In this document: one piece after another, positions 5,730 through 16,572 of the stretch | How positions within the stretch are numbered: the stretch's first letter is position 1 | How the letters are laid out: each line of letters opens with the position of its first letter | Source: Massalongia carnosa | Lineage: Eukaryota | NCBI GenBank assembly: GCA_965645245.1 | Contig: OZ287087.1 | Location: forward strand, 1,364,001 to 1,428,000 | Reading direction: 5' to 3' | Length of the DNA: 64,000 nucleotides | The notes under the pieces: model-generated | Database searches by the model: none | Seen by the model: the letters and a program-made list of their open reading frames with translations, nothing else | Told to the model about the DNA's origin: nothing | Translations under genes and position numbers: made by a program

Positions 5730-6921
5730 CGACTGAACTGATGTCGCGTGAATTTAGGACAACACTTTCGCTACTAGCCTCAAATATCATGTTGATCTTC
5801 ATTTCACTTCATCTACCCTTTTTTATCTTTACCTTTTCATCCATCCTTACCTTTTTTCTCATCTTTATCTTTCTTCGCATGCGTCATTGATTTGTTCTTT
5901 CAATCCTATTGCTCATTCCTTCGTAATCTGAGTACTACTATCGATCTCTTCTCGATCATCAGTTCTTAAACTGGTATGATCGTCTGACTTGATTTTGAGA
6001 TACAACCTCATCTCACATTGCATTATCACAGATTTCAGCCTCTACTTATCCACATCATGGAAGAAAATGTTTATTCCTCATAATATCTTCATCTAAAGCT
6101 TTTAACTTACCTTTTTTCAGGCGATCCCGATCACGCCTAGAAAAACGAGGAGAGCGGTAAAGAAGGATATAGATAAAAAGATGACAAATGAGAACTAGGA
6201 CTCTCATGCCAAGTTTTTCAAGAATGAACCAAAGACAGCCGCTTATTTAGGATACAGCGATGTCGCCGAATAGAGGAAGTTTCGGTTCAGTAGTGTTGTA
6301 CTGGAATGGTATATTCCATATCATCAAAACTGCCAACAGAGAAGTGTCAAAACTCCTCTGGCGCTTCTTCGAGATCTTCCTGACCTGTCAGATGCTTTTC
6401 CAGCTGACTTAGGTCAGCTTCTTTCAAAATATCCTATTACAGATCAGGATGATAGGGCCAACAGGCATCAAAGCAATGATAGCAGGGACTATCTATATGT
6501 CGTCATACTTTTTCGACTCGCAGAAGCTATTGATGAGGTTTCGTCTACTAGATCTTATGATGTTGAAAGACACAGAGCGGCTTCAAACCGATTTGAAAAA
6601 ATTAGGGTTCGGATACGGGGACACCGGGTAGGATGCATGTACACCGGGCACTTGATGCATGTACACCGGGCACTTGATGCATGTACACCGGGCACTTGAT
6701 ACATATACACCCTCTTCCCAAAAAGGTAAAGGGCCGGCACATTTCGCACCACTTTACCTTTCTTGGTTAGCAGATGAAAAATCAGATGAGATCTTGAAAT
6801 TTTCAATTGATGCATCATCTTTCTCAATCATTCTCAAATTATGCCTCTGGCTCCTCCTCACGATGACCAGGTTTTTTCCACCTTGGAAGAACTCATTCTC
6901 AGCGTCAATACTCACGCCGGC

Positions 6922-6993
6922 GGCCTGCTGGGTCAGAAACCTCTACGTGGTGCAGGCTATCAACACCTCCTCGGAGGTGGCCAATATCTGATC
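6922..6993 (+). ncRNA. HDV-like self-cleaving ribozyme
   Basis: P1 GGCCTGC 6922-28/GCAGGCT 6952-58 (G1-U wobble); P2 GGTCAGAA 6931-38/T(A)TCTGATC 6985-93; P3 ACC/GGT around L3 TCTACGT; single P1.1 pair U6944-A6959; P4 CACCTC/GAGGTG; J4/2 GCCAA with putative catalytic C6981. Confidence 0.82.
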
Positions 6994-7078
6994 ATCGCCA
7001 ACGCGGAAGTCCACCTCGGTGGCCATTTGAACGATCAACGTCTCTACTGATCATTCGTCACCTCGAAGGCACACATAC

Positions 7079-7224
7079 AAAGCCCATTCATTCGAAATGG
7101 CCACACCCCTCAGGCGGAAGCCTTTCACCTCATCGAAAAAGCCCACTCATTCGGAATGGCCACACCCCTCAGGCGGAAGCCTTTCACCACATCGAAAAAG
7201 CCCATTCATTTAGAATGGCCACAC
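7079..7224 (+). repeat. 59-bp tandem repeat (~2.5 units) inside the retroposon
   Basis: Units start 7079, 7138, 7197 (AAAGCCCAYTCATT...GGCCACAC); full units carry an AGGC-GGAA-GCCT hairpin. Confidence 0.9.
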
Positions 7225-9541
7225 TTACACACCTTCATTTATACGACACCACGATCTGCCCTCGATCACGGCCAGTCTTTCCTCCATTGAATCAAAACGT
7301 TTAAAGAGAGAGAACGTTCGTCGAACGTGTGAAAATACACTGTCTAGTTCATCGAGTCTATAGGATTCCTAGCGCTTGAAGATCTGGGTGTACGCACCGC
7401 GTGGTAGAAGGACGGTCTCGTTGCGTTCAACATGGAACAAGGGAGTGGTTTTACCCTGGGGGCCAGGTTTCCACTTCCTGACTGTTGTTTATGTACATAA
7501 ATAGCAGTCACAGCGTCATATCCTTAGGATGCATACGCTTAATGAATTAATAATAATAAACTCACGCCGGCTCAGAAGGATACGCGGTGGTCACAGCTAG
7601 ATCAAAGAAATCAGATCTTGGCATCAAGAGAAAAGTCTGGTTGCGCTGCGACAGGGGAGGTAGCAATCGAATACCTCGAGGCAGAGATAGACGTCATACT
7701 AATACTCGAATCATCGATTGTCAGTTCAAGGTCACGGCGGTGCGAAACAGAGTGGATGGAACCTGGTTATTGGAAGTAATCAACCCATTCCATAATCATG
7801 AAGCTACAATTGCTGGATCGCATCCAACGTTACGCAAAATGGCTATGACTGAAGAGATTAAGAACGACATCTCTAGACAATTGACCGTGCAAACAGCTCC
7901 TTCTAAGATTCTCTCCACCCTTCGTATTGACACCGATAACAACAATCCGTTATTCAAGCCTCGAGATATCTACAACATCAAGGCACAGCTGAGACGAGAT
8001 ACTCTAGGTCCTTTAACCCCGGTTCAGGCATTGATGCAGGAACTTGATCAAAACGACTGGACGTATAACTATCAGAAAGACATTCGCAATCAGATCACCC
8101 ACTTATTCTTCGTGAGAGGAACATCCCAAACTCTACTGAAGGTCAATCATGAAGTTCTGGTCATGGATTGCACCTACAAAACCAACAGATATAAACTTCC
8201 GTTGCTGATCATCAGCGGGCAAACGGCCCTACATACTAATTTCTATGTCGCGTTTTGCTTCATGGCAAAGGAGAAGCAGGTGGATTATGAGTGGACATTG
8301 GGACAATTGAAGTCGTTGTATGCGCAGTTGCAAATTCCAGATCCGGTGGTTGTTGTGACCGACATGGAGCGTGGGTTGATGAATGCCGTGCGATTGATCT
8401 TTCCCAATACGAATCATCTGCTCTGTCTTTGGCATATCAACAAGAATGTGACGGCAAATTGCAAGAAGGACTTCAATACCAAAGAAGAATGGGATGACTT
8501 CATATCCGCCTGGACTTCTGTTGTATACGCCGCTTCCAGAGTTGATTACGAGTCGGCGTGGCAGGGAATGAATGACACCTACTATCTAACGTATGGAGAA
8601 TGTTTGGATTATCTGCGAGAAACGTACATCATGTCCTTTCATCGTCGCTTCGTGAAATTTCAAACCGATCAGGTGTTACATTTCGGAACCACAACTACTT
8701 CTAGAGGTGAGGGGGGGCACGCAGCTCTTAAACGTCATCTCGGAGTATCAACAGGTAATGAGTACAACCCTAAGAAACATTCAATACTGACTGAGCTGTA
8801 GGAGATTTGAAAACAGTTGTAGATGGCATCAACCGACTTCTAATCAACGAGCGACAAAATTACATGATAGCCTTTGACGAAGCGAAGATGCGATACCCTA
8901 TGGATCTTCGAAAACCAGTTTTCAATCGCATCGCGGCGTTCGTAACCCCATACGCATTGAGAAGAATGGATGATCAATACAGACTGTTGACGGACCAAGC
9001 AACGGCAGTCAATCGTTGCACTGGAAGCTTTACAACTACTACCGGATTACCATGCAGTCACAAAATGCAGGAACGTTCATTCGGACCTGAGGGATGTCTG
9101 ATTTTGGAAGATGTCCATCCTCATTGGAGGTTTGAAAGATCTTCCTTACCTGATCCAATCAATGATCCAACTCTCGATCCGCTACTTCAGGTGGAAGAAC
9201 CAGCAGTTGTCCAACCTCGAGGACGTCCTGCAGGGGCGGAGAATCGTAGACAAGCATTGGACAACTCCACCTATCGGAATCCATCTCAATTCGAAATCGT
9301 TGAAGGTGAAATAGCAGAGCAACATGGGAATGAACTGCCAGCGGATATCGAACGAGTTCTGGCAAGAGCCGAGGCTACACCAGCGGGACGCGGGCGCGGG
9401 CGCGGGCGCGAGCGACGACGAGATGAAGGTGAGGTGGCAGGTACTCGTGCCTCATCCAGGCCTGCGACTCAAGCAGCAACTAGGGCGCGCAGGGCGGGCA
9501 GGGCGGACAGGGCGGACAAGGCGAAAAAGGTCGGCGAGGCG

Positions 9542-9603
9542 GGCAGAGGGGGCAGGGGGGGCAGGGGGGGCAGGGGGGGCAGGGGGGGCAGGGGGGGCAG
9601 GGG
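9542..9603 (+). repeat. (GGCAGGGGG)n 9-bp repeat encoding the transposase RGG tail
   Basis: Direct reading; translates GRGGRGGRGGRGGRGGRGGRG. Confidence 0.9.
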
Positions 9604-10163
9604 AAGAAGGGGTAGGACTGACGAGGCAATTACGACCGAGTAGCTAGAAGATATCATCTTATCAATCTTGATGAGATGCAACAGATCAATGCTAAAAACT
9701 TCATTGCCGCATAGTTTTCAAATCACCATCTGATTTTTCATCTACTAACCAAGAAAGGTAAAGTGGTGCGAAATGTGCCGGCCCTTTACCTTTTTGGGAA
9801 GAGGGTGTATATGTATCAAGTGCCCGGTGTACATGCATCAAGTGCCCGGTGTACATGCATCCTACCCGGTGTCCCCGTATCCGAACCCTTTCAAATAGTC
9901 ATTCCAACCACCACAAGGTCCTATGACCACCCACGGCGAGCCTATCATGGCACCCCATCGGCCTGAGGGTCACCCCGAGCACCTCCATTTATTTCTACAT
10001 ATCCAAACGGAGTAAAAACGTTTCAAAATAGACTACAAATAGTTGGGTTATAAGTGATTTTTGGAGATAGCCATTTCTGCGCAAAGAAATCACGACATGT
10101 CGAAGCACTAACAATCAACGACTCTTCGAAAAATATATCAATATTAACGAGATAAGGAACAAC

Positions 10164-11644
10164 ATGAACGCTGAATTCGAAGAATCATTCGTGGTCGCGC
10201 ACACGCAGCAGAGAGATTATCTGCTGGACAAGATAAATGATTATCTTGTAGGAATAGGAGATGAGGGTTAACCGGAGGGGACCATAGTCCTGCAGGAAGT
10301 GGAAACTTTTCTCGAAAATCAGAGAAATTTCGACAACGACAACGACGATGACAAGACGTCGAAGACTCTAAACGTCACGTTAACAGAAATCCAGAAAAGC
10401 CTTGCTCGCATCGAAGGAGCAAAAGCAGTCACAACAAACTCGGATAACTACGCCGCCGCTGCCACCAGAGGCCAGGCCGCTTAAGCCCCACCGGTCCCAC
10501 GTCGCACGAAGCCAACTGCACACTTAAAGCACACCGAGCCCTCGCCTCAAGAGATTCGAAAGGCCAGGGAAATAACCATCGTCGTCCCGAACACAATAGA
10601 CAAAGAAAAACCAAAGAACGTGACAACAAAAGATCTCGTGGAGACACTACAACGTGAGACGAAGGGGATTCGGGGAATATCACGTCTCATGAGCGGAGAT
10701 CTCAAGATTCATACCGAATCTTTAGAGGCCAAAAAGCTCCTACAAGAGAAACCGGAGTGGGTTCAAATTGTAGCCGAATCAGCCGCGATAAAGACACGAA
10801 CGTACTCTATCAGGGTAAATGGTGTCAAGGTCGAAAATATCAAAACCGCCAACCAATCGCAGGCTATAGAGTACCTACAGGCCGCTAACGCACGTCTGCA
10901 CCTGAACCTGAAGATCAAGAAATAGCCTGGTCCGTCAAAGCTATAAGGGAAAAAAAGACGTATTCTACGCTACATATGGAAGTCGCAACCGCCGAAACGG
11001 CCAACCGGATCATAGCCGAAGGCCTTGTGGTCGACTATGAAATCAAAGATTGTGAAAGGTTCACCAAGGGATGTACCATGACGCAATGCTTCAACTGTCA
11101 CAAATACGGTCACATAGGTCGCTCATGTCCAAATCCTACCGCCTGTGGCCACTGCGCCGGGGGCCATCCCAGCACCGAATGCAACATGGAAACGACGGGT
11201 AGATACCGAAGATGTGCTGCATGCAGTGAAAAAGGCCATGAAGCCTGGTCCACATCCTGCGAAATCAGGAAATCGGAAAAACGCAAAGCAGACAAGGCTA
11301 TGCAAAATCGGGTTCCGTTTTATCCAGTCGCTGTCCCAACACCAACAGTGTTTAGATTTCAAGAGGAAACAACAGTTATAAATTCAACCGATACAAGCAG
11401 CAAAAAACGAAAGACCGCACCCCCACCAGGTTCACCGCCGATTCCCCCTAAAATCGGAATCACATGGGCGGACACGGGTATCATGAATCCAGAGAACATG
11501 ACAAAAGCTCTTGCAAAACCAGTTGTAGGCAGACCCCCAATCAGGCCGCGAGACGAGTCTACAGCTCCGATTACGCCTAGCTCCAACGCATCAATCAGCG
11601 CCGTCTCCTCGACTTCTCAGGTCGAAATCATGGACGTCTTATGA
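10164..11644 (+). pseudogene. LINE-A ORF1 (gag-like), with stops and frameshifts
   Basis: CFNCHKYGHIGRSC, CGHCAGGHPSTEC, CAACSEKGHEAWSTSC knuckles; stop overlaps the ORF2 start (ATGA, 11641-44). Confidence 0.85.
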
Positions 11645-14007
11645 GGGATAAAAATTCCCTCTCTATATTGCAGTATAATGTCAGAAATGACAGAGTAAGT
11701 ACTATGCTACCTCTCTTAGCAGACCCGAACACTCAGGACTACGATATCATTGCTATTCAAGAACCCTGGCGTAATCCCTCAGCTCTCACCACATTAAGTT
11801 CTCATCAAAGCGGCTTTCACCTACTATACCGCCCGAGCGGAGAAACAAGAGTATGTTTCTATATTAGTGACTCAATTGACCCTGATAGCTGGGAAGTAAA
11901 ATTTCCATCACCCGACATGTGCACGCTAATAATTCGCACAAAAATTGGAGAAACGTCAGAAGTAATTTATATTCACAACGTGTACAACCCTTCTCCCGCC
12001 TCTTACTCCTCCGTAGACTGTCCGTCCACTCTGACAACCGTGAAACGTCAATTAACGGCAGGCGTAAAACACGTCTTATTAGGGGATTTCAATTTAAATC
12101 ATCCTCTTTGGAACGACTCAACGAGAACAACTCAACATGCGAGTGCAGATCAGCTGTTAGACGTGATTGAAGAAGCTAACCTTTCACTGACATTACCAAA
12201 AGGCACCATCACCTGGGAGGCAAGACAATCGTTCAGCACTATCGATCTTGTATTCATGTCGGACGACCTAGTCGCGAGACTAGAACATTGCATGTCAAGA
12301 CCTGAACTTAATCAATCGTCCGATCACATACCAATCTCAACTCGAATAACGCTTAACAGTGAGCCTCAAAACAATTGTTGAACGCAGGGCCTGGAAGCGG
12401 GTAAATATGGAAAAATTGAGGGAAGTTGAAAAACGGGCTCCGCTTCCGTTCTCTCCCCGATCTCCGGACGAAATCGAAGCCTACACGATAACGATTCAAG
12501 AATTCCTTCAAGAAGTCATAAACGCTACTGTACCATGGGCAAGACCCAGTAAGTACGCCAAGCCATTTTGGAATGATGAATGCAGTGTAATCACGAAAGA
12601 AACTCGCAGGCTTAGACGCGCCTGGACGAACTCCAGAGATCTTTCAGATTGGATAACGTACACGAAGTCTAATCATTGAAAACAAAAAATCATTCAAAAA
12701 GCCAAGAGACTGTCATTCCGCAAGGAAATAGAAAAAGCTACTGAATCGCCTATGGGATTATGGCGGCTGGCTAAGTGGGCAAAAGACAAAAGTGAGAAGC
12801 CAAGAGAAATTCCAAAAATGCCTAGCCTCACCCGAGACGATCAAATAGCTTCCACGTTCGAGGAAAAAACGGAGATGCTGAAACAGAAATTCTTTCCACC
12901 TGCACCTCCTGCCGATCTTAGCGACATAGAGGGCTCCTTTTATCCTAGTCCTCCTCACTGTCCCACAATCGTAACCAGATCGGAAGTAACAGAATCGATA
13001 CGCCGACTCAAGCCCGACACGGCCCCTGGTCCGGACGGAATAACCAACAGAATTGTAAAGGCGTGCTCCGAAAAGCTGTCCGATTTACTAACTCCTTTGT
13101 TTCAAACATGCATAGATCAGGCGTATCATCCACGCGCGTTCAAGACCGCAAACACAATCACACCGAGAAAGATAGACAAAGATGATTATACGGCTCCGAA
13201 CGCCTATCGTCCTATAGCACTCCTGAACACGCTTGGCAAGGTTATGGAACCTTTCATGTCCAAGAAAATCACCCACATAGCGGAAATACACCGACTTCTA
13301 CCCGATACCCAGATGGTGCCAGAAGAGGAAGATCAACAGAAACTGCACTGAAATTGTTAATGGAACAAATCCACACAGTATGGGGACAAGGCAACGACAA
13401 AGTAGCCACTCTGTTGAGCATGGACGTAGCAGGAGCATATGATATAGTGTCACATAGACGTTTAATCCATAACCTGCGCAAACGGAAAATCCCAAAATGG
13501 ATTACTGACTGGGTAGACAGTTTTTTAAACGAACGAAGTACCACGCTAGCAATACATAGCCGAGTCACAGACATATTCGAAGTAAGAACCGGAATACCAC
13601 AAGGCTCTCCTATTTCTCCTATCCTCTATCTTTTCTATAATGCAGACCTACTAGACATACGTGAAAGACCCGGAACCAACACGAGCGCCATAGGTTTCGT
13701 AGATGACATAAACGTGTTAGCATATGGGAAAAGCACGGAAGAAAATTGCAAAACGCTGGAGGAAATTCACAAGAAATGCGAAAGATGGGCCATTCGGCAC
13801 GGATCGGTTTTTGCACCGAAAAAATACGAACTGATATAATCGTCGGCTCGCTTAGTGGGATCCGACTCGGAGGCCGTCGCCTCCTAGTCGGGGAAATCAA
13901 TTTGCATCCGGAAAGCGATTTGCATCCGGAAAGCGATTTGCATCCATTCAAACTGAAATTTTGACCATTTTTCACCTTTTACCCTCAACCACATTGATTT
14001 ATTGATT

Positions 14008-16161
14008 CTAAATTTCATACAAAGCTCGAAAGGCATCGTTATCATCAAAGCCGTCATTAAAATCATCCCTCTGACCCCCCTGACCCCCTTGACCACCCTG
14101 ACCACCCTGATTATTCTGATCTTCCTGACACCCCGCATACCCCGCATCCCCCTCATAATTCGAAGCATCTCCCGATTCGAAACCTGGATCGAAAGACACA
14201 AAATCATCTCGTAGCCATGCTTCTTCTTCTGGAATGTCCGGAATGTTCGAAATGTTCGAAATGCCTCCATTTCTAGCTTCAGTCTCATCTACAATAAATG
14301 TGACGTCTTCTTCAACATTGGCACGAGCAGATGCAGATGGATTCTTTCTGGCTTCTTTTTTCACTTCCTCAGCTATCCACACCTCATTCGTCGCTTTCCA
14401 TAATGCTTCGGGGTCAGGAATCTCCTCATACATCTCAACTGAGATGGCACCGAGATCTTTCAGCATCTCTTTTAGTCGTTTGACTCGATCCCTTTCTGCT
14501 TTTCGAGCAGTCACCCCTTTGACATGAATTTCGTCTCTTTCCGTTCTTCACAACTTCATGAAGTTATTTTTCTCCTTCTTCTTCTCACTTTCCTGATCTT
14601 TTTGTAGCTTCATGGCTATAGCTTGCTTCGCATCTTCAGCGGTTATTCCCAATCTTCCGATTTCAGGTCTCAATCTTTTACGAGATATTCGTCTGCTGTT
14701 TAGCTGATTCGTTCTTTGCTGCTGATACATTTCAAGCTCCGCTTCTCCGAGTATAGACTTCGAAATGATCTCTTTCGTACCAGCTATAAAAGAATCAAAT
14801 TCCCCTGCTCGGGCGGGATCACTCCATTGCATAGATTCTTGAATTTTTGACCCCCATTGACGCAATCCATGTTCTATGTCGACTATATCCCTAGGTTGAA
14901 TTTGACGAGGTAGAGGAAGTGAGGGCTGATCAGTCAGATCAGAATTGTTCAGACTAGAATTGTCGAGAATGAATTGTTTCAGCTGACGAATGCATGCTTC
15001 TGGATTGACCGGCCACATTCCCGAATTTTCAAATGCATGTCGGATTGTAGAAGCTTTGAATGTCTGGTTTCTAATTTTGATCAAATCCTGAAGAAACCGA
15101 GTCAGGGAATACTCGACAAATGACGATGCAACATTCTCCTCAATAGCCTGTTGATGCCATTGTTTATAGGGCTGAAATACGCCGACATCCAATGGCTGCA
15201 TGCAATGAGTCAAATGTGGAATTAGTGGGTAGGGACGAATGTGATTTTCATTGGCCAGAAGTACAAATTCAGGAGTAACGTGACTGCCATGATTATCCAT
15301 CAGGAGCAATTTCCACTCTGCATTAGGTCCTGCATCCGAATTTTGAATGAGATGCTTCAAATATTCAATTGCTATCTTATCAGATGTGAAACCACTGTCG
15401 GAAGGCACAATACGCGTGCCCACCGGCAAATCCTCCGAAAACCACGTCGCCATGATTTCCTGACCCTGTATGATGATCATGGGGGGAAGGGGATAGTCGC
15501 CAGCAGTATTGATCGTCTCAATGACCGTCGCAGATCTGCGATTCTCCGGGCTGACGGCGTAGAATTGCTTGATTTCCATAGGAACGTAGATTTCCTGACC
15601 CTTCATGCATCCAATTCGAAAACCAGCTTCATCAAAGTTTAGAATGTTTCGTCTTCTTCTGATTTTCAATTCTCTCAATACCTCTTTGTAGCCATCAAAC
15701 CATTTGATCACATCTGATTCTTCAGCGGCTTCAAAGCGAATCATTGGTAATGGTTTGGTCTTAATCTTGTGTAAACTGCTACGTTTCCACCAAGACCGAA
15801 ACCATCGTCTTGATGGAGCTTTTAATTTATGAGCCTTTCTCAGACTTACAATTGCATTAAAAGCCATGTGATGCGTAGGTGGAATTCCATGTATCAATAA
15901 GGATTTAATGAATCCATCTAAAGCCCTAGCTTCATGCTCTTTCAGTATCTGATTTTCTCCCCCCTTTTTTTTCCCTTCTTTTTTCTGTCCTTCTTTCGGA
16001 TGACGACGAACAGAAGACGTCAACGTTTTAACGTTGACATTGTAGATTTTTGACGCAGCAGCCTTGCTTTCTTTGGGATGATCAATCAGAAATTGCTTCG
16101 CTTCTTCCAATCTTTCCATGGGACTGGGAGTGGAAACCAAGATTGAGGCATTATTTTCCAT
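14008..16161 (-). pseudogene. pogo/Fot1 transposase with one in-frame stop (14548-50)
   Basis: NFDEAGF, LMDNHGSH, HCMQPLDVGVF motifs; probable ATG 16161; frame continues into ORF 14008-14514. Confidence 0.9.
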
Positions 16162-16572
16162 GGTACGAAGGGAGGTTGAAAATGTCAGGGTCCTAGCCTG
16201 ACATAAGGCTGAGATGGAAGGGGGGAGCACGCGAGCACGCGAGGCTAGCGCGACACTCGGTGCAGATATTTCTAGCGAGTCGCGCACAATGTTTCTTTTC
16301 TTCTTTTGTAGATAAATTTTAGTTTAATAGCGGTTGATTAGAATCGACGACAGCTTCCTTACACAATTTATCTACCTATTAGTATTCTTTCTTCCAGAAC
16401 TTTCAGTAGGGACGAGGTCCCGTTCCAGCAACTTTCTTCCAGATAGGGTGAAAACCCGTTCCAGTAACTTTCCAGACTGATCGTTTGTGCGAATCCAAAC
16501 CGATCCAAATTCCAGAACTTCCAGAACTTTTAGAATCAGGGAATCAAGCTATCCCATTTTCAGAATCCAGTC

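Follow-up and report, generated by a model that had tools for sequence, protein, structure and literature searches.

What is the 638-bp segment that splits a transposase gene in this stretch of Massalongia carnosa DNA, and what sets the base at which it begins? The window, by which we mean the whole 64,000-nt stretch that was analysed (positions 1,364,001 to 1,428,000 of contig OZ287087.1 in assembly GCA_965645245.1), contains a MULE DNA transposon with this segment inserted into its transposase gene. An earlier note on the same DNA proposed that the insert is a non-coding retroposon beginning at the cut site of a ribozyme like that of hepatitis delta virus (HDV). Our analysis leads us to read positions 6922-7559, with a probability of roughly three in four, as one copy of a multi-copy, non-coding, non-autonomous retroposon of the kind that lacks long terminal repeats (a non-LTR retroposon). 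A ribozyme predicted at its 5' end would cut its RNA out of read-through transcripts, and a long interspersed element (LINE) would copy that RNA in trans.

The insert is bounded by a perfect 12-bp target-site duplication (TSD) and carries a (TAA)4 tail directly before the second TSD copy, as the earlier note had described, and its claim that a MULE reading frame is interrupted is borne out by the in-frame TSD and by the FAR1 and MULE domains downstream (Table 1). The TSD is translated as T-H-A-G in the same frame on either side of the insert, an ATG lies upstream, and the FAR1 DNA-binding domain resumes downstream (profile positions 7-88 of 90, from residue 3, in the first 100 residues of the downstream open reading frame, ORF), so deletion of 650 bp restores a single transposase ORF that continues through the FAR1 domain. 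The retroposon lies in the sense orientation relative to the transposase, 81 nt past its ATG. Taken alone, a direct repeat of 12 bp within 1 kb would not be unusual; we consider the insertion secure because the frame is restored, the tail abuts the second repeat, and other copies of the element show the same boundaries. The 638-bp insert has no terminal inverted repeats (TIRs) or LTR-type ends, and the element has no further copy within the 64-kb window.

The first 72 nt of the insert form a complete HDV-like fold with predicted self-cleavage, and the start of the fold coincides with the boundary set independently by the TSD. Helices P1, P2, P3 and P4 are all fully paired and follow the canonical nested double-pseudoknot order, and the GGCCAA at 6979-6984 lines up with GGCUAA in both Rfam HDV consensus lines. 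The best Rfam match is RF02682, the HDV ribozyme from Faecalibacterium prausnitzii, which covers 6922-6993 end to end at 29.9 bits (E = 0.0054 in a 2.5-kb search, and 0.14 when the whole window is searched with all families). RF00094 scores 24.5 bits, and Rfam gives no other HDV match in the window. Both the Rfam alignment and our descriptor searches agree with the earlier note in placing an HDV fold at the first base after the TSD, with C6981 in J4/2.

For the descriptor searches we made a custom structure-only descriptor and compared its matches in the window with those in shuffled windows. It matches the window three times, and shuffled windows 1.63 times on average, which corresponds to about 1.3 x 10−5 per given start base. 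The two matches other than 6922 lie in the coding regions of a Copia element (26856, plus strand) and a LINE (13298, minus strand) and are at chance level; both fail a strict descriptor that also demands the letters on which the two Rfam HDV consensus lines agree–the G·U pair of P1, the UC start and the CG of L3, and GCNAA in J4/2. With the strict descriptor, 6922 is the only match in 128 kb (both strands of the window), and there are none in 300 shuffled windows.

Table 1. Coordinates of the insert, its predicted ribozyme, the host transposon, neighbouring elements and the metagenome element L003 (window positions, except the last three rows, which refer to the L003 contig).
Feature	Position	Strand	Remark
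Retroposon insert, 638 bp	6922-7559	+	bounded by perfect 12-bp TSD
Left TSD copy, 12 bp, ACTCACGCCGGC	6910-6921	+	codons T-H-A-G of MULE transposase
Right TSD copy, 12 bp, ACTCACGCCGGC	7560-7571	+	MULE ORF picks up again in frame
Tail (TAA)4, TAATAATAATAA	7548-7559	+	directly before right TSD copy
HDV-like ribozyme fold, 72 nt	6922-6993	+	predicted cleavage 5' of G6922
P1, 7 bp	6922-6928 / 6952-6958	+	G1·U37 (G6922 with U6958)
P2, 7 bp	6931-6937 / 6987-6993	+	includes one G·U
P3, 3 bp	6939-6941 / 6949-6951	+	P3' directly followed by P1'
L3, UCUACGU	6942-6948	+	
J1/4, AUCAA	6959-6963	+	
P4, 6 bp	6964-6969 / 6974-6979	+	loop CUCG
J4/2, GCCAAUA	6980-6986	+	
Candidate catalytic cytosine in J4/2	6981	+	aligned to C of GGCUAA
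5' body after the ribozyme	6994-7078	+	no Pfam match, no long ORF
2.5 tandem copies of a 59-bp unit	7079-7224	+	copy number varies among element copies
Strongly structured 3' domain	7400-7547	+	three hairpins
MULE DNA transposon carrying the retroposon	6604-9889	+	TIRs and FAR1/MULE-domain ORF
MULE TIRs, long	6604-6799 and 9716-9889		
MULE transposase, upstream frame	6811-6921	+	ATG at 6841
MULE transposase, downstream ORF	7560-8801	+	Pfam MULE 7.3e-26, ZSWIM RNaseH-like, FAR1
Non-LTR retrotransposon fragment	about 10,000-13,839		ORF1, APE, RT (reverse transcriptase)
LINE fragment, ORF1	10889-11644		zinc knuckle
LINE fragment, APE	11581-12381		
LINE fragment, RT	13186-13839		
pogo/Fot1-type DDE_1 transposon	14548-16323	−	interrupts the LINE
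Gypsy gag	16534 onwards		after pogo
L003 TSD, 16 bp, CCCTGTACCTAAAACA	723-708 and 42-27	−	
L003 ribozyme G1	707	−	first base after TSD
L003 tail (CAT)n	ends at 43	−	then TSD again

Is the element one of a family whose members all begin at this base? The earlier note had predicted copies with a shared GGCCTGC 5' end and variable TSDs, and we sought them through the element's 31-mers in public sequencing runs. Fourteen runs from 12 studies hold these 31-mers, eight of them half or more; in their labels nine organisms appear in coded form, 'lichen metagenome' is the label of three runs, and no RNA run was listed. Four runs (X1, X5, X9 and X11) were compared with the window over 6600-7900, all data being contigs. 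In X1, where 2,419 contig pieces matched the region, the match ends at 6922 in 13 contigs and at 6921 in eight, and the flanks beyond are unlike one another (agreement 0.41-0.47). The X9 copy has a different flank joined at 6922, and a 172-nt contig of X11 stops at 6922. In X5 a contig of 2,051 nt carries a full copy from which one 59-bp unit (7088-7146) is missing; this copy has its own 13-bp TSD, AAATTACATCGGC, with AAATTACAT followed by CGGC before G1 and TAA followed by AAATTACATCGGC after the tail. A common 5' end is therefore seen in 21 contigs of X1 and one each of X5 and X9, which stop at 6918-6922 against unlike flanks, and the TSDs differ between copies (12 bp in the window, 13 bp in X5), so the prediction of a dispersed multi-copy family is supported. 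On the 3' side, matches in X1 end at 7547, 7553 and 7560 with A-rich continuations, and the tail varies among copies in length and composition. One X1 contig joins 7551 straight to 6922, which means that a head-to-tail junction, from a dimer or a circle, exists in that run.

Just before G1, the window copy (6918-6921) and the X5 copy, which is independent of it, both read CGGC, and X9 reads CTCGG. With three cases only, the likeness may come from a preference in second-strand cleavage or in 5' joining, or from chance.

Variation among the copies is not even along their length. None of the 39 variant positions listed within the element falls in its first 83 nt (6922-7004), for which P = 0.0044 under uniform placement. 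The X9 copy has no differences over the 115 positions of its 5' piece (6922-7036) against 18 of 151 in its 3' piece (7401-7551; Fisher P = 2.7 x 10−5), and the X11 contig has none over 172. In this family, then, runs that carry different organism labels agree at every position over 115-172 nt of the 5' module, and the 3' part has diverged by 12%. The contrast could mean that the ribozyme is under strong selection, that 5' heads are exchanged between families as modules, or that the element has spread horizontally among lichen-associated fungi.

Downstream of the ribozyme, the part of the body that stands out is its 3' domain: the fold of 7400-7559 has a minimum free energy of −50.6 kcal/mol (z = −3.32), and none of 200 shuffles did as well. 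We infer that the mobilising reverse transcriptase may recognise the element by this hairpin domain. No Pfam family reached threshold in the element's four longest frames, the best being DUF7662 with E = 0.039 and 14.2 bits against a 26-bit cut-off.

Put together, the life cycle that we propose would run as follows. The element would have no promoter of its own and would be transcribed within a longer host transcript, here the mRNA of the MULE transposase, into which it is inserted in sense. Its first 72 nt would fold as an HDV-like ribozyme and cut just 5' of G6922, so that all RNAs of the element share one 5' end. The reverse transcriptase and endonuclease of a LINE would then make use of the (TAA)n tail and of the structured 3' domain, and target-primed reverse transcription would leave duplications of 12-16 bp at the target site.

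The upper figure comes from a second, unrelated element, which we found by scanning a metagenome collection with the single-stranded core and P3 only. The scan returned 27 metagenome loci, representing 21 distinct sequences, with no copy of the window's element among them; the same core pattern had no match in genome contigs and none in viral contigs. Most of the 27 loci are gut contigs of the AGG-CAAC type, and the AU-CAAC form of J1/4 that is present in the window also occurs, with intact helices, in six of them. Using our own script we parsed the helices in 19 sequences (18 from these loci, and the window). P1 is paired at 7 of 7 positions in 18 of the 19, P2 has at least 5 bp in all 19, and the P4 stem has at least 4 bp in 18, and there are 12 different P1 sequences in the set. 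The predicted helices are thus backed by covariation at the level of the class, and also between the window and the locus L003.

L003 is a 1,172-nt metagenome contig with a 665-nt element on its minus strand (span 27-723), and its ribozyme matches RF02682 at 38.7 bits (E = 6 x 10−5). Relative to the window, two pairs of its P1 show compensatory double changes (C-G to U-A, U-A to G-C), and its P2 and P4 are wholly different and still paired. The body and tail are unrelated to those of the window's element. A layout of TSD, HDV-like G1, putatively non-coding body, simple-repeat tail and TSD therefore appears twice independently. ARAGORN found no tRNA in the L003 element, and the structure of its 3' region is not unusual (z = −0.05). 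The L003 body also contains a second, partial L3 core (AAACCTCTACGTG), and behind it a hairpin that resembles a T arm, GTAGGTTCGATTCCTAC.

A third ribozyme-headed element may be represented by L024 (1648-1733, minus strand), which has a related ribozyme with P1 paired at 6 of 7 positions and a long insert in P4. Its 5' flank ends in TTCATCATCTTTT, and downstream lies a tandem array of about ten units, each some 24 nt long; we found no TSD or 3' end. Three other loci of the AU type, L002, L016 and L021, were considered as retroposons and rejected, their surroundings being ordinary genes (chaperonin, DNA methylase, HAD_SAK_1); L027 has a ribozyme identical to that of L016 and an ORF layout that looks alike. 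L002 (5340-7052) and L021 are gene-dense contigs with same-core ribozymes that have A1-U37 in place of G1·U37, and a Cpn60/TCP-1 chaperonin gene is near the ribozyme in both. The L002 ribozyme is also about 1 kb from a gene for the HAD_SAK_1 'Swiss Army Knife RNA repair' domain, and a ribozyme adjoining an RNA-repair gene may merit attention.

At least two unrelated families, that of the window and L003 (with another body, tail and TSD length), thus carry the same core. It is possible, and we put it forward only tentatively, that 'Ribozyme-SINEs' are recurrent outside animals and trypanosomes–that is, promoter-less non-coding retroposons resembling short interspersed elements (SINEs), in fungi and other environmental eukaryotes, with one core module (ACCUCUACGUGGU, AUCAAC and GGCYAA) at the first base.

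Several observations weigh against our reading of the insert as a ribozyme-headed retroposon mobilised by a LINE. The scan with HDV-like models that the earlier note had called for recovered the fold at 6922 but did not reach Rfam's gathering thresholds (29.9 against 44 bits for RF02682, 24.5 against 50 for RF00094); because no match in the window reaches gathering, the site is a member of neither family by Rfam's own standards. J1/4 starts with AU and not with the AGG of the F. prausnitzii type, so that a P1.1 of two G-C pairs is impossible and one U-A pair at most can form between L3 and J1/4. An AU-type J1/4 counts against high cleavage activity, although the same variant recurs with helices predicted to be intact. 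Among the 21 distinct core-matched sequences, two (L017 and L026) have no P1 within 24 nt and were dropped from the set of 19. No covariation is seen within the window's family, whose common copies are identical across the ribozyme, and the depletion of variants at the 5' end is gone (P = 0.63) if all six variants beyond those listed fall in the first 83 nt. A conserved 5' end would also fit an internal promoter. Finally, no partner LINE came to light in the window, where the neighbouring LINE fragment and the element have no sequence in common.

The promoter deserves to be taken up as an explanation in its own right. On this account an internal RNA polymerase II promoter or initiator at 6922 sets the 5' end, and the fold is inactive, a relic, or has a role in protein binding or RNA stability. 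The lack of listed variants in the first 83 nt would be explained by a promoter as well, the weak P1.1 agrees with it, and there is a precedent in L1Tc, where the same 77 nt are promoter and ribozyme (PMC3383444, PMC3185411). We nevertheless think it unlikely, because the window's element and L003, which are unrelated, each have a complete fold from base 1, with helices that differ and yet are paired, as a promoter would not require, and because the strict descriptor found nothing in 300 shuffles. The two functions could also coexist, like the dual Pr77/L1TcRz system of L1Tc. Those same shuffles bear on whether the HDV-like match is a random fit at the terminus of a LINE fragment that had lost its 5' part in the ordinary way. 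Rfam scores under gathering and the structure-only rate of 1.63 per shuffled window might encourage that view, which is already close to refuted: the expectation at a given base is about 1.3 x 10−5, many copies have one common 5' end, unlike the outcome of random truncation, and the layout is found again in L003.

The remaining alternatives concern how the element is propagated. The X1 contig that joins 7551 to 6922 could point to a retrozyme-like or tandem life style, with head-to-tail copies cut by the ribozyme to unit length and possibly circularised, so that a circle or unit would be the intermediate; cutting at the next G1 would also create a 3' end just past the tail. We regard this as very improbable, since the junction is present in one contig only and would arise equally if one copy had inserted into the tail of another that was already there, and since the copies in the window, X5 and L003 each stand alone between ordinary TSDs. 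There is even less to recommend a conventional RNA polymerase III (Pol III) SINE with an incidental ribozyme-like fold. Size (638 bp), absence of coding capacity, TSD and simple-repeat tail are SINE-like in a general way, but the 638 bp contain no Pol III A box within two mismatches, the lone B-box-like match has two mismatches and lies at base 10 of the element, a T4 run occurs at base 528, ARAGORN found no tRNA, and Rfam gave no match to tRNA, 5S, 7SL or any other small RNA. The box search, ARAGORN, Rfam and Pfam together uphold what the earlier note had said, namely that the element is non-coding and has no Pol III boxes.

What, then, might mobilise the element, if it is a retroposon dependent on a LINE as we propose? 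The window is a nest of transposons, with the MULE, a LINE, a pogo element, two Gypsy elements, a Copia and a Tc1. We rejected the neighbouring LINE as the partner; it has no sequence in common with the element, and its 3' end has been lost to the pogo and Gypsy insertions. A lead comes from X1, in which rarer contigs are about 10% different over 6928-7041. One contig of 3,231 nt begins at 6928, matches 6928-7041 and 7245-7382, and continues for about 2.8 kb; it differs by about 10-17% from the 5' part of the element, and 136 other letters replace the 59-bp repeats. This contig may be the parent LINE, but it is a lead only. If it is, the element would be an internally deleted derivative, which may consist of the LINE's 5' and 3' untranslated regions, as in R2 SIDEs; this possibility comes from one contig only.

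The earlier note also called the family fungal, and the leads agree without amounting to proof. The nearest clusters of the pogo/Fot1-type transposase are from Ascomycota; a look-up of the MULE returned plant-dominated clusters and does not settle the taxonomy. Because of the pogo clusters and the holder runs labelled as lichen metagenomes, the host is likely, but not proven, to be a lichen-associated ascomycete.

We compared the element with known systems. The principle that HDV-like ribozymes head R2, RTE and L1Tc retrotransposons and R2 SIDEs, which the earlier note had invoked, is established (PMC6765202, PMC3774820, PMC3185411, PMC3414825), and Baggins belongs with them (PMC6765202, PMC3774820). 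In the autonomous elements R2, RTE, Baggins and L1Tc, a promoter-less life cycle depends on co-transcription and 5' processing by the ribozyme (PMC6765202, PMC3774820); these elements encode their own reverse transcriptase, whereas the window's element encodes nothing. There is also a likeness to NARTc, RIME and SIDER, whose partners are the trypanosomatid L1Tc/ingi elements and which are likewise non-coding with an HDV-like ribozyme at the 5' end. The first 77 nt of NARTc are a ribozyme that cleaves at +1 (PMC3185411), and RIME and SIDER follow the same principle (PMC4035085). Elements of this group have a 5' module in common with an autonomous LINE, are freed from longer co-transcripts, and occur both solitary and in tandem (PMC3185411, PMC4035085). 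They differ from the window's element in kingdom, in their unrelated sequence and in the function of their 77 nt, which also act as a promoter (Pr77), and the (TAA)n tail is a feature of the element described here. The R2 SIDEs of Drosophila have lost the ORF, retain at one end the HDV-like 5' ribozyme and at the other the 3' sequence that the reverse transcriptase requires, and are mobilised in trans (PMC3414825). They are site-specific in 28S rDNA and transcribed by RNA polymerase I, whereas the window's element is dispersed with TSDs of 12-13 bp; we saw no 28S rDNA specificity, the insertion being in a MULE transposase ORF and the other copies in unlike flanks.

At the level of the ribozyme, the window's sequence has the same P3/L3 (ACCUCUACGUGGU), the CAAC of J1/4 and the GGCYAA of J4/2 as the RF02682 ribozyme of F. 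prausnitzii, which is bacterial, lies outside retroelements, and has AGG in J1/4 where the window has AU. Non-autonomous elements whose RNA is processed by small self-cleaving ribozymes of other classes include the retrozymes of plants and animals and the hammerhead SINEs of Schistosoma, and twister variants are found in non-LTR elements of S. mansoni (PMC4918200, PMC8501958, PMC6765202); retrozymes differ both in ribozyme class and in spreading via circular RNAs. For methods that rely on ligation, poor detection of HDV-like products is reported (AbRiDGed preprint). A fungal occurrence of HDV-like ribozymes is mentioned in PMC3774820, with reference to Webb and Luptak 2011. Literature searches turned up no fungal retroposon with an HDV-like ribozyme at its head, and a search by name for a Trichoderma ribozyme gave no hit, though such a retroposon may have been reported earlier. 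Non-autonomous retroposons with an HDV-like head have thus already been described, as NARTc and R2 SIDEs, and the fungal case has apparently not yet been reported.

Two further features of the MULE are worth recording. Its TIRs contain, at 6632-6711 and 9804-9889, 3.6 tandem copies of a 22-bp unit (GATGCATGTACACCGGGCACTT). Within its ORF, positions 8243-8273 match the Rfam L31-Firmicutes ribosomal protein leader at 31.5 bits, against a gathering threshold of 33.3; in a eukaryotic MULE ORF this is almost certainly a chance match.

The candidate ribozyme is a compact natural one of 72 nt with a weak P1.1, for which C6981U is the obvious control mutant, and the 5' head and 3' domain of the element together offer a sequence handle for finding the LINE that drives the family. 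Judging from L003, elements of this kind may be under-annotated, as Rfam thresholds fail to pick them up. Where a copy lies in sense within a gene, its ribozyme would sever the transcript of the host, so that the family could also knock down, post-transcriptionally, the genes and transposons into which it has inserted. If our reading is true, the HDV-like strategy in which the host transcribes an element that then cuts itself free extends to a fungal, probably lichen-associated genome, and to an element that is purely non-coding.

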